A stretch of DNA of 64,000 nucleotides from Escherichia coli (GTDB lineage: Bacteria; Pseudomonadota; Gammaproteobacteria; Enterobacterales; Enterobacteriaceae). A program made the position numbers. Location: NCBI RefSeq assembly GCF_050920415.1, contig NZ_CP169309.1; one strand, given 5' to 3'. Positions 24,001 through 27,000 of this stretch are shown piece after piece. Each line of letters opens with the position of its first letter. Position 1 is the stretch's first letter.

Positions 24001-27000
24001 TTGCGCTTCATGACCATTGCCACAATAAGGCTGAGTAAGAGCGCGCCAATAATCCATACCAGAGCACGACTGCCCTGGGACCACAGACTGTAGATGAAGC
24101 CAACGATCACCAACAACATAACCAACGTGCCAACGATAAGAATCGGCAACGAGGCATGGATATCATGACGCAGGCGGATCGCCACCACAAACACCGCCAG
24201 GTAGCAGATCAAAAAGGTGGCACTGGCAACGCTGGCGAGTGAGCCTAAATTTAGCGCCGCCGTCATCAACATAATCAACACCACGACGATGATGTTGCCC
24301 CAGGTACTCTGCCGCCACAGAGATTTATTCATTAGCTTCGGCAGTTCGCGTTCGCTTCCCATGTTGTCCATGATGTTAAACACGGCGAACAGGTTCGCGT
24401 TGATGGCTGAAGCCGTCGCCAGTAAAGCACCGATGACAACGATCACATAACCCACATGCCCGAGGAGCGGAGATGCGGCCTGCGCTACGGCGGTATCGGC
24501 ATATTTTTCTAACTCTAATGCCGATACATCGCTAAGCAGTACCAGCGCCAGCGAGATATAAAGCAACGTGGTAACGCCAATCGCCACCAGAAACGCCCGT
24601 GGCATAATGACCGCCGGATCTTTCACTTTATCCGCCGCGTTCGCCATCATGCCAAAGCCCGCATAGGCAAGGAAGGTTATCCCGATACAGGAGAAGAACG
24701 CACCGGAGCTGGGAGGCGCAGAGACGGAAATATGCGCCGGTTGTAGCGACCAGACACCGGCAATAATCAGCAATAACAGGATCATCATTTTAATGCCGAC
24801 GAGGATCACTTCCAGCCGTCCTACCGCATGGTTGCTTAAGGAGTTGAATAGCGTCATCACCGCAATGATCCCCAACGCGTAGAGCAGAATAAGGTGCTCC
24901 TCCTGGCTGCCTTCATGCAAAAACTGCACGGCATAAGCGCCAAAAGCACGGGCGACCATGGCGATGCTTACCGCCAGCGTCAACAGGTACAGTAACGAGA
25001 GCGCCAGCGAAAAGACGCCGTTGCCTAATCCGCGACGAAAGAAGTCGATAATACCGCCATTGCTGGGATAGCTCGCCCCCAGACGCGCATAGGCATAACC
25101 AGAAAACATCGCCACAATACCACCAAAAGCAAAGGCGACCCAGGTCGAGGCTTCCATTAGCAACGCAGCCTGCCCCAGCAGCGCGAAGATCCCCGCCCCC
25201 ACCATTGCCCCAATGCCAATGGAAACGACGTTCCATAGACCGAGGGGTTTGTTACCGTTATTACCTTCCGTGTTCATCATGATCAGCCCTTAAACACGTT
25301 ATAGCCGAGTTGCTTAGCGACCGATGCCACCATTTTTTGACCGCGAACACTATTGCCTTCTTCGTCCAGCGGTGGTGAGAACGCGGCAATTCCCATCACA
25401 CCAGGAACGACCGCCAGAATACCGCCACCTACACCGCTTTTGCCCGGTAAACCAACGCGATATGCCCAGTCACCGGAGCGACCATACAGCCCTTCCATCA
25501 TCATTTCGGCCAGAATGTACGGCACATTGTCGGCCTGAAGAACGCGTTTATGCGTCAGCGGATTCACTCCGCCCGCCGCCAGCGTCGCGCCAAGCGTTGC
25601 CAGTTCAATAGTATTGATGAGCGTGGAGCACTGACGGGTGTACACGTCACAGGCTTCCATTGCATCACAATAGAGATATCCGGCGGAGTACAGCAGCCAG
25701 GCAATGGCCCGGTTATGGAAGTTGGTTGTTTGTTCCGACTGGTTGACTTCATCAGAGAGCGCTACCTGCTCACCAGCCAGTTGTTGTTGGATATGTAAAA
25801 TTCGCTGCCAGCGTTGTTCGGCATTTTCAGCGTTAATCAGGCTGGTGGTGGCAATAGCGCCAGCATTTACCAGTGGCGAAAGCGGTTTGCCGCCATGCAA
25901 CTCTAAGGCGATAACCGAGTTAAAGGGCAATCCGGTCGGGTCAGCGCCAATTTTGTCCTGTACCGCCTGCGGGCCGACATCTTCTAACGCGAGGGCTAAC
26001 GTACAGACTTTTGAGATGGATTCCAGCGCAAAGCGGTAATCACTGTCACCCGCGCTAAAGACTTTACCATCGCAGGTCACGATAGCCACTGCCGCCAGTT
26101 GACTGGGCACATTCGCCAGAAAGGGAATGTAATCGGCATTTTGTCCGCCGTTAAGTGAGTGAAATTGGGTGTAAGCCTGATCCACTGCCTGCTGTAATGT
26201 GTTTGCATCTAACATCTTTTGTTAACTCCTTTTTATAGATGCGGGAGGGGATTCCTCACCCTGGTGCCGATTTTCAGGCATCCTGATTTAACTTAGCACC
26301 CGCGACTTAACTACAGGAAAACAAAGAGATAAATGTCTAATCCTGATGCAAATTGAGCCGATTTTTTAATCTTTACGGACTTTTACCCGCCTGGTTTATT
26401 AATTTCTTGACCTTCCCCTTGCTGGAAGGTTTAACCTTTAACACAGTCAGTCAACACTGTCTTAAAGGAGTACGTTATGTCACAAACTATCGACCTGACC
26501 CTGGACGGCCTGTCCTGCGGTCACTGCGTTAAACGCGTGAAAGAAAGTCTCGAACAGCGCCCGGACGTTGAGCAGGCGGATGTGTCTATCACTGAAGCAC
26601 ACGTTACGGGTACTGCCAGTGCAGAACAGCTGATCGAAACCATCAAACAAGCGGGTTATGACGCATCTGTAAGCCACCCAAAGGCTAAACCGCTGGCGGA
26701 GTCATCAATCCCGTCGGAAGCACTGACAGCGGTTTCTGAGGCGCTTCCGGCAGCAAACGCCGATGACGATGACAGCCAGCAGTTGCTGCTGAGCGGCATG
26801 AGCTGCGCCAGCTGTGTCACCCGCGTACAAAATGCGCTGCAAAGCGTACCGGGCGTCACTCAGGCACGGGTAAACCTGGCGGAGCGTACTGCGCTGGTGA
26901 TGGGCAGTGCCTCTCCACAAGATTTAGTGCAGGCGGTGGAAAAAGCGGGCTACGGCGCGGAAGCGATTGAAGATGACGCTAAACGCCGCGAGCGCCAGCA

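Follow-up and report, generated by a model that had tools for sequence, protein, structure and literature searches.

Programmed −1 ribosomal frameshifting in Escherichia coli copA and dnaX is well characterized for both genes (PMC10861913, PMC9548414, PMC5009743, PMC6771820). For copA of strain K-12, production of the short product CopA(Z) and its binding or transfer of Cu(I) have been reported (PMC9548414, PMC6771820), and a pseudoknot stimulator exists in the gene (PMC6182138). The −1 frameshift of IS3-family transposase orfAB (e.g., IS2, with A AAA AAG) uses a slippery heptamer of the same type and works by the same tandem slip, but there slipping carries translation on into a second open reading frame (ORF), whereas in copA and dnaX translation stops one codon after the slip. 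In Firmicutes and many other organisms, a single-HMA-domain Cu(I) chaperone likewise accompanies the pump (PMC10187127); it is encoded, however, by a separate copZ adjoining copA, an independent gene with its own start and stop and without recoding.

The window analyzed here is a chromosome segment of 64,000 nucleotides from E. coli (contig NZ_CP169309.1). Its closest genome, that of E. coli strain MFDS1022581, has 3 mismatches to it in 60 kb. A sequence-only reading of the window had claimed that the frameshift sites of copA and dnaX are intact, and this is borne out: neither heptamer is mutated, and the downstream structure is kept, as seen in the identity to K-12 and in the match to Rfam RF00382. 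We consider it highly probable (roughly 0.96) that the two sites are functioning cassettes for programmed −1 ribosomal frameshifting like those characterized in K-12, with the occurrence and efficiency of slippage, and what the products do, carried over from published K-12 work. The sequence elements, reading frames, K-12 identity, and conservation were observed directly. Both sites are textbook E. coli signals that were already known. The closest genome also contains an IS2 annotated with "programmed frameshift," a copy that is absent from the window.

The copA features are as follows.

26477-28981, plus strand: copA, zero-frame product an 834-aa Cu(I)-exporting P-type ATPase (ORF; annotated copA in the near-identical genome; Pfam two HMA stretches, E1-E2_ATPase, and Hydrolase)
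26477-26688, plus strand: CopA(Z), 70 aa, comprising codons 1-69 in the zero frame (26477-26683), a −1 slip, GGC (26683-26685), and TAA (26686-26688) (translation; 212 nt, as the K-12 joined coding sequence [CDS])
26677-26683, plus strand: copA slippery heptamer C CCA AAG, codons 68-69 (sequence, frame)
26686-26688, plus strand: −1 stop TAA terminating CopA(Z) (−1 frame translation)

The sequence-only reading had placed CCCAAAG at codons 68 and 69 of copA, with a −1 product of 70 residues corresponding to the CopA(Z) chaperone, and each of these statements agrees with the DNA. Counted from the ATG at 26477, the heptamer divides as C CCA AAG in the zero frame (Pro68, Lys69), and −1 translation starting at 26677 gives Pro-Lys-Gly-stop; since 69 zero-frame residues are followed by Gly, CopA(Z) has 70 aa in total. 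Its span equals that of the 212-nt joined K-12 CDS for the "soluble Cu(+) chaperone" (YP_009518752.1). The heptamer sits after the first of the two Pfam HMA stretches, with a CxxC motif at residues 14 to 17, and the frameshift sites of copA and dnaX both coincide with Pfam domain boundaries. In comparison with K-12 copA/CopA(Z) (Meydan et al. 2017; YP_009518752.1), the window shares C CCA AAG at codons 68-69, the −1 frame GGC UAA, the 70-aa product, and 70 identical nucleotides downstream. The cassette itself shows no differences; these begin with copA nt 279 and 281 (T94N), just 3′ of the second pseudoknot stem described below. Zero differences from K-12 were found over copA nt 136 to 278, although the whole gene is 94.65% identical, and CopA residues 1 to 93, the range of the nascent-chain contribution, are identical as well. 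The nascent chain reportedly contributes to copA frameshifting, a finding attributed to Meydan and colleagues in 2017.

Conservation of the copA cassette extends well beyond K-12. Identity to the 86-nt cassette was at least 99% in 5343 of 5422 E. coli genomes, and identity to a whole-gene copA query was below 95% in 3997 of 5435 matching records. A scan of the genome collection with full-length CopA gave three Enterobacterales loci, the universal P-type ATPase motif MVGDGIND dominating the matches, and nine further copA 5′ regions were added by protein search and exact-sequence look-ups. In all 13 Enterobacterales copA sequences, the heptamer lies in frame and a −1 stop comes exactly one codon after it (Pluralibacter gergoviae being counted after correction of a probable extra A in an assembly homopolymer). 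The heptamer is C CCA AAG in 11 of the 13 and C CCA AAA in the other 2, and the cassette is kept despite amino acid changes around the site (HPKAK, HPKAN, HPKSD, RPKAE, SPKPD, and NPKAK). Codon 70 invariably ends in U and codon 71 encodes only K, N, D, or E (AAx/GAx), so that UAA or UGA is preserved in the −1 frame. Among pairs of sequences with the same amino acid, the proportion with different codons was 0.497 over codons 1 to 65, 0.082 over codons 67 to 92, and 0.364 over codons 93 to 113; within codons 67 to 73, it fell to 0 of 187 pairs, against about 50% upstream. This conservation is the decisive evidence that the cassettes exceed chance, and the copA comparison across species offers a clean example of the footprint left by a recoding signal. 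Outside this group, about 40 HMA domains from distant CopA homologues were searched, and none of them showed a heptamer-plus-stop cassette; some of the organisms concerned have a separate copZ gene instead, and copZ examples lie upstream of copA in several distant loci.

Two of the relatives show variant arrangements. The CopA of Photorhabdus caribbeanensis has three HMA domains. Its heptamer is C CCA AAA and its stem 2 is compensated, and the cassette comes after the second domain, a position from which a 140-aa two-domain chaperone ending …SPKI is predicted. The heptamer of Pluralibacter copA is apparently C CCA AAA too.

Downstream of the copA heptamer, two stems can be drawn.

26687-26735, plus strand: pseudoknot stem 1 of copA, 26687-26695 (AAACCGCUG) with 26727-26735 (CAGCGGUUU), including a conserved 6-bp core of 26690-26695 with 26727-26732 (read from sequence)
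26713-26751, plus strand: pseudoknot stem 2 of copA, 26713-26721 (GUCGGAAGC) with 26743-26751 (GCUUCCGGC) (hairpin −20.6 kcal/mol, z = −2.43)

This stem assignment was made here by our own pairing of the sequence and may differ from the published base-pair map of the pseudoknot. The loop of stem 2 encloses the 3′ arm of stem 1, which gives the topology of an H-type pseudoknot. The core of stem 1 is paired in all 13 Enterobacterales sequences, with one C-G to U-G change, and its A-U extension showed no conservation among them. For stem 2, 97.4% of cells were paired over the 13 sequences and two pairs were changed on both sides, with a G-C to C-G double change in Photorhabdus. The near-invariance of the sequence leaves little covariation to be seen in the copA stems: three cells were changed on both sides, and 25 of 500 shuffles reached the covariation score. 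The folding energies of the copA and dnaX elements are unremarkable taken alone (z = −1.5 to −2.4).

In the mechanism that we propose for copA, the pseudoknot, starting 3 to 6 nt downstream, would stall the ribosome with tRNA-Pro on CCA and tRNA-Lys on AAG. In a fraction of passes, both tRNAs would shift back by one base to pair with CCC and AAA, after which GGC and then UAA would be read and the 70-aa protein released. CopA(Z) would thus consist of the first metal-binding domain (HMA, CxxC) and presumably act as a soluble Cu(I) chaperone, while passes without a slip would yield the 834-aa copper pump. Stem 2 by itself is a stable hairpin, and transcript truncation or proteolysis could instead be where most of the short CopA comes from, with the conserved RNA structure serving transcript processing or stability. 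Work from 2017 cited in PMC7558416 also counts in favor of such an origin. However, the copA hairpin lacks a U-run after it and so is not an intrinsic terminator, and a truncated transcript leaves the conserved in-frame heptamer and the nearby −1 stop unexplained. The copA frameshift is, moreover, well supported by ribosome profiling and independently confirmed (PMC9548414), and we regard truncation or proteolysis as a very improbable main source of the short protein.

Several 70-aa proteins in the database resemble annotated CopA(Z). Most are not: indels upstream lead their reading frame to the same −1 stop (…PPKG), a pattern that points to assembly errors.

The dnaX features lie on the opposite strand.

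44764-46695, minus strand: dnaX, zero-frame product tau, 643 aa (ORF; annotation; Pfam domains through tau IV [417-498] and V [500-640])
45401-46695, minus strand: gamma, 431 aa, ending Lys-Lys-Glu, comprising codons 1-430 (46695 to 45406), a −1 slip, GAG (45406-45404), and TGA (45403-45401) (translation; 1295 nt, as the K-12 joined gamma CDS)
45406-45412, minus strand: dnaX slippery heptamer A AAA AAG, codons 429-430 (sequence, frame, RF00382)
45423-45428, minus strand: Shine-Dalgarno-like stimulator AGGGAG, 10 nt 5′ of the dnaX heptamer (sequence; RF00382 model positions 4-9)
45371-45400, minus strand: G+C-rich stem-loop stimulator, 5 nt 3′ of the dnaX heptamer (RF00382 paired columns 32-61; minimum free energy −19.7 kcal/mol, z = −1.93)
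45367-45431, minus strand: full DnaX ribosomal frameshifting element, Rfam RF00382 (94.6 bits versus a gathering score of 35, E = 2.2e-19, model positions 1-65 of 65)

For dnaX, too, the earlier claims of a minus-strand A AAA AAG, a GC-rich stem-loop 3′ of it, and a −1 product ending Lys-Lys-Glu-stop that is the gamma subunit were confirmed. The heptamer was found at 45412 to 45406, in a gene starting with the ATG at 46695 and with a zero frame of ..KAKKSEP.., and the stem-loop was located at 45400 to 45371, where it matches RF00382. The −1 frame reads ..SKKE*, and its span equals the 1295-nt K-12 joined gamma CDS. Like the K-12 dnaX gamma/tau system (RF00382), the window has A AAA AAG at codons 429-430, AGGGAG 10 nt upstream, the stem-loop, GAG UGA in the −1 frame, and a 431-aa gamma. 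It differs from K-12 in two bases just 5′ of AGGGAG (GCA here versus GTG in K-12 and most E. coli), a position outside the known elements. There are no differences from K-12 over dnaX nt 1267 to 1406 (from AGGGAG across the stem-loop and on to 140 nt downstream), and the gene overall is 96.82% identical over the 1,509 nt compared. With an 81-nt dnaX query, 5402 of 5423 genomes were 95 to 99% identical; within that stretch, the differences from K-12 are confined to the 5′ side of AGGGAG. One tentative idea, which we would hold loosely, is that the copA cassette may be a conserved Enterobacterales module placed after varying numbers of metal-binding domains, and the only novelty in the window itself would be a tuning of efficiency by the lineage-specific substitutions adjoining the elements (GCA for GTG at dnaX and T94N at copA).

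At dnaX, two tRNA-Lys on AAA AAG would move back on A AAA AAG, stimulated by the upstream AGGGAG (which would pair with 16S rRNA) and by the stem-loop 5 nt downstream. GAG and then UGA would be read after the slip, giving a gamma of 431 aa without the DnaB-binding and alpha-binding domains of tau, and passes without a slip would give tau of 643 aa. That gamma might arise instead from RNA polymerase slippage on the A run, and not at the ribosome, is suggested by the run of six A at the dnaX site and by the dnaX of Thermus thermophilus, which uses transcriptional slippage. Six A, however, is short for efficient transcriptional slippage, and the conserved Shine-Dalgarno-like sequence (at 10 nt) and stem-loop (at 5 nt), both in the Rfam model, are ribosome-directed stimulators. 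Kinetic and single-molecule work likewise puts the event at tRNA translocation (PMC6771820), and a transcriptional origin of gamma in this genome is scarcely credible.

Counts of heptamers in the window were compared with expectations from codon shuffling. In-frame X XXA AAG sites numbered 3 in 18,703 codons versus 1.56 expected, which is within chance. Two of these heptamers have a −1 stop no more than two codons on, which is unusual, 0.09 being expected and 0.5% of shuffles reaching two; in-frame heptamers are otherwise strongly avoided (27 observed versus 65 expected). The proposal that the heptamers are by-products of Pro-Lys and Lys-Lys dipeptides and of codon usage, without a recoding function in this genome, can draw on the nonsignificant X XXA AAG count and on the chance-like third site, but it is close to untenable against the frozen synonymous sites of copA codons 67 to 73, the retention of the copA −1 stop one codon on in every relative while amino acids vary, the full Rfam match of the dnaX element, and the avoidance of in-frame heptamers elsewhere. 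That third site, G GGA AAG at 31312, was rejected as a frameshift site and attributed to chance, with no downstream structure (z = 0.08), as was A AAA AAA at 45205 (z = −0.92).

The significance of these sites is one of annotation quality rather than discovery, in that the window encodes a CopA(Z) copper chaperone and a DNA polymerase III gamma subunit. The sequence-only reading had asserted that a standard ORF track misses both alternative products. This is true of a mechanical ORF list of the window, in which neither product is present, and of the CDS list that automated annotation gives for the closest genome, which includes neither CopA(Z) nor gamma. It needs a small qualification, since the same automated annotation flags a "DnaX frameshifting element," and the curated K-12 RefSeq record annotates both products, with joined CDSs for the "soluble Cu(+) chaperone" (YP_009518752.1) and for gamma (YP_009518751.1).

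Every known cis element of the copA and dnaX -1 programmed frameshift sites is present in the window, in frame, and under purifying selection. Both sites are already known. PMC10861913 names dnaX, copA, and prfB as the E. coli chromosomal genes in which frameshifting is well characterised, and the sites in the window are the same cassettes as in K-12, not variants of them. The elements of the two sites are as follows.

46695 down to 44764, minus strand: dnaX ORF, 643 aa
45428-45423, minus strand: Shine-Dalgarno (SD)-like AGGGAG from the RF00382 alignment, 10 nt 5′ of the heptamer
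45412..45406, minus strand: dnaX heptamer AAAAAAG
45400-45371, minus strand: dnaX stem-loop, 5 nt 3′ of the heptamer
26477-28981, plus strand: copA ORF, 834 aa
26677-26683, plus strand: copA heptamer CCCAAAG
26687-26695 AAACCGCUG with 26727-26735 CAGCGGUUU, plus strand: copA stem 1, read from sequence
26713-26721 GUCGGAAGC with 26743-26751 GCUUCCGGC, plus strand: copA stem 2, read from sequence

In dnaX, the zero frame (tau) reads …TKAKKSEPAA, with Lys429 and Lys430, and the -1 frame reads …SKKE*, so that the slipped product (gamma) would end in Lys-Lys-Glu at 431 aa. At 1295 nt, its coding range is as long as the K-12 joined gamma CDS (YP_009518751.1); gamma stops within the region assigned by Pfam to tau domain IV (417-498), leaving out domain V (500-640). 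Positions 45431-45367 on the minus strand match the Rfam DnaX ribosomal frameshifting element (RF00382) at 94.6 bits (gathering score, 35; E = 2.2e-19) over all 65 model positions. Both frames thus agree with an earlier sequence-only reading of a minus-strand heptamer at 45406-45412 with a product ending Lys-Lys-Glu, and the G+C-rich stem-loop it placed downstream was recovered at 45400-45371, within the full-length RF00382 match (-19.7 kcal/mol; z = -1.93 versus shuffles). The 140 nt from AGGGAG onward (dnaX nt 1267-1406) have zero differences from K-12. The only nearby change, GCA in place of GTG directly 5′ of AGGGAG, explains why an 81-nt dnaX query, found in 5423/5426 E. coli genomes, is 97.5% identical to most of them. 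Production of gamma by transcriptional slippage is unlikely: the run has only six A residues, and such slippage needs no ribosome-directed stimulators, yet those of dnaX are conserved.

At copA, which encodes a Cu(I)-exporting P-type ATPase, the zero frame reads C CCA AAG (Pro68 and Lys69) and the -1 frame from 26677 reads Pro-Lys-Gly-stop. After a one-base backward slip on the heptamer, translation would continue through a Gly codon and terminate at the TAA (26686-26688), hence a predicted product of 70 aa. The range 26477-26688 (212 nt) equals the K-12 RefSeq two-piece CDS YP_009518752.1, annotated as "soluble Cu(+) chaperone." The sequence and its translations therefore confirm both the heptamer at codons 68-69 and the 70-residue product, CopA(Z), that had been proposed. 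The 3′ arm of stem 1 sits within the loop of stem 2, so the two stems can coexist only as an H-type pseudoknot; folded alone, stem 2 reaches -20.6 kcal/mol (z = -2.43). Stimulation of copA frameshifting by a pseudoknot is described in PMC6182138, and we infer that the stems drawn here are those of the published map. The heptamer and both stems (copA nt 136-278) are identical to K-12, where ~7.6 differences would be expected at the gene-average divergence; the nearest differences, at nt 279 and 281, lie directly 3′ of stem 2, and CopA residues 1-93 are also identical. With the elements present and core regions matching K-12 at both genes, the reading of these sites as intact E. coli -1 frameshift cassettes is supported.

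This identity occurs in a lineage somewhat divergent within E. coli. Relative to K-12, copA has 94.65% identity and dnaX 96.82% (1,509 nt compared), and a 2.8-kb copA query reached ≥99% identity in only 2 records, with 3986 records in the 90 to 95% band. Unlike this whole-gene query, which was mostly 90 to 95% identical in E. coli, the 86-nt copA cassette had ≥99% identity in 5343/5422 E. coli genomes and 95 to 99% in the remaining 79.

We compared copA 5′ regions from Citrobacter, an Enterobacter, Photorhabdus, Cronobacter, Buttiauxella, Mixta, Pluralibacter, Salmonella, Klebsiella michiganensis, and three other assemblies. An in-frame heptamer lies at the end of a metal-binding (HMA) domain in 13/13 sequences (C CCA AAG in 11, C CCA AAA in 2), within a variable peptide context (HPKAK, HPKAN, HPKSD, RPKAE, SPKPD, NPKAK, or DPKAK). 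The -1 stop lies exactly one codon past the heptamer in all 13, in Pluralibacter only after correction of a probable extra A. The third base of codon 70 is U in every sequence, and codon 71 encodes only K, N, D, or E, exactly the residues with codons starting in AA or GA; UAA or UGA is thereby kept in the -1 frame. Across nine genera, pairs sharing an amino acid used different codons at a frequency of 0.497 over codons 1-65, 0.082 over codons 67-92, and 0.364 over codons 93-113, with 0/187 such pairs differing in codons 67-73. The 6-bp core of stem 1 is paired in 13/13 sequences, with a single replacement of C-G by U-G; the A-U extension occurs only in Escherichia and Salmonella. In stem 2, 97.4% of cells are paired; both partners are altered in two of its pairs, one being a G-C to C-G swap in Photorhabdus. 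With so little variation in the sequence, formal support from covariation is modest. The cassette was not found in ~40 HMA domains of distant CopA homologues; several of these organisms have instead a separate chaperone gene directly upstream.

Origin of the short CopA product from a truncated transcript would not explain these data, as it leaves the conserved heptamer and stop unaccounted for and no U-run follows the copA hairpin. Chance occurrence of the heptamers is excluded by the conservation of synonymous sites and of the -1 stop. In a set of 35 annotated genes (18,703 codons), heptamers of the form X XXY YYZ are avoided in frame (27 observed versus 64.8 ± 8.2 when codons were shuffled within genes). 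Three sites, copA, dnaX, and a G GGA AAG at 31312, are of the X XXA AAG type, which is highly prone to shifting; their count alone is not significant in these 18,703 codons (1.56 by shuffling). A -1 stop lies ≤2 codons away at 2/3 of them (0.09 expected; 0.5% of shuffles reach two). The site at 31312 belongs to an accessory gene with a DUF6896 domain; it has no downstream structure (z = 0.08) and is probably a chance occurrence. An A AAA AAA at dnaX codon 498 (45199-45205, minus strand), in the tau-only region with a -1 frame open for 4 codons, has no notable downstream structure (z = -0.92) and was likewise treated as chance.

By analogy with K-12, P-site and A-site tRNAs would slip in tandem during translocation while the downstream structure blocks the ribosome, helped at dnaX by upstream SD-like pairing (PMC6771820). 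Slippage at dnaX would give gamma, and at copA early termination would free the first HMA domain as a copper chaperone (PMC5009743, PMC6771820, PMC9548414, PMC10187127). The suggestion that a standard ORF track misses both products holds in part: neither is in the mechanical ORF list, and the closest genome's automated annotation has neither as a CDS, but it flags the DnaX element and the curated K-12 record annotates both.

Photorhabdus caribbeanensis CopA (locus L008, 3001-3500) has three HMA domains with the cassette after the second: heptamer C CCA AAA at 3411-3417, -1 frame AUC UGA, stem 1 CCGCUG/CAGCGG, and stem 2 CCGGAAC/GUUCCGG (the G-C to C-G double change versus E. coli). A two-domain chaperone of 140 aa, ending SPKI, is predicted from this arrangement. 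The Pluralibacter gergoviae assembly GCA_900454925.1 (locus L092, 995-1020) reads CCCAAAAAAC, with six A residues, which splits copA by ending zero-frame translation at HPKN*; the called 70-aa protein matches the predicted frameshift product. In a Pluralibacter protein derived from a metagenome (P0056), the sequence is HPKTEPL, implying five A residues, which would give C CCA AAA with -1 AAC UGA. The sixth A, probably extra in the assembly, would reflect either miscalling of the homopolymer or a true indel. Several "70-aa" database proteins from Salmonella and other enterics (P0073, P0079, P0083, P0087, and P0095) resemble annotated CopA(Z) but for the most part are not. They end …PPKG, upstream indels entering the -1 frame early and then reaching the same conserved stop, and are likely assembly errors.

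The window is part of an E. coli chromosome, and the closest genome, strain MFDS1022581 (NZ_CP169399.1), has 3 mismatches in 60,075 bases. In that strain ylaC and pdeB are separated by a 1.3-kb IS2 that has a 5-bp target duplication and whose transposase annotation includes a programmed frameshift; the window lacks this IS2 and has the empty site at 60071-60075. Between copA and ybaP, 360 bp (28978-29337) replace the 727-bp K-12 segment holding ybaQ, a gene that the window lacks at this position. A 1.36-kb insertion relative to K-12 separates ybaK and ushA (30889-32246), and a type I secretion island (1-23650) adjoins ybaT. Three Rfam matches exceeded threshold. These features are as follows.

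1-1408, cut by the window edge: type I secretion system (T1SS) permease/ATPase, secretion island
1412-22186: SiiEA, BapA-related adhesin, 6,924 aa, secretion island, long internal repeats (74 to 76% identity)
22295-23650: TolC-family protein, secretion island
30203-30286, minus strand: sroB (Rfam); the K-12 record has ChiX at the equivalent site
31055-31546: DUF6896-domain gene, ybaK-ushA insertion
31707-32210: hypothetical gene, ybaK-ushA insertion
37322-37392, plus strand: naRNA4 (Rfam)
62236-62332, minus strand: small SRP RNA (Rfam)

Beside naRNA4, two 95-bp segments (37264-37358 and 37355-37449) overlap by 4 bp and are 92.6% identical.
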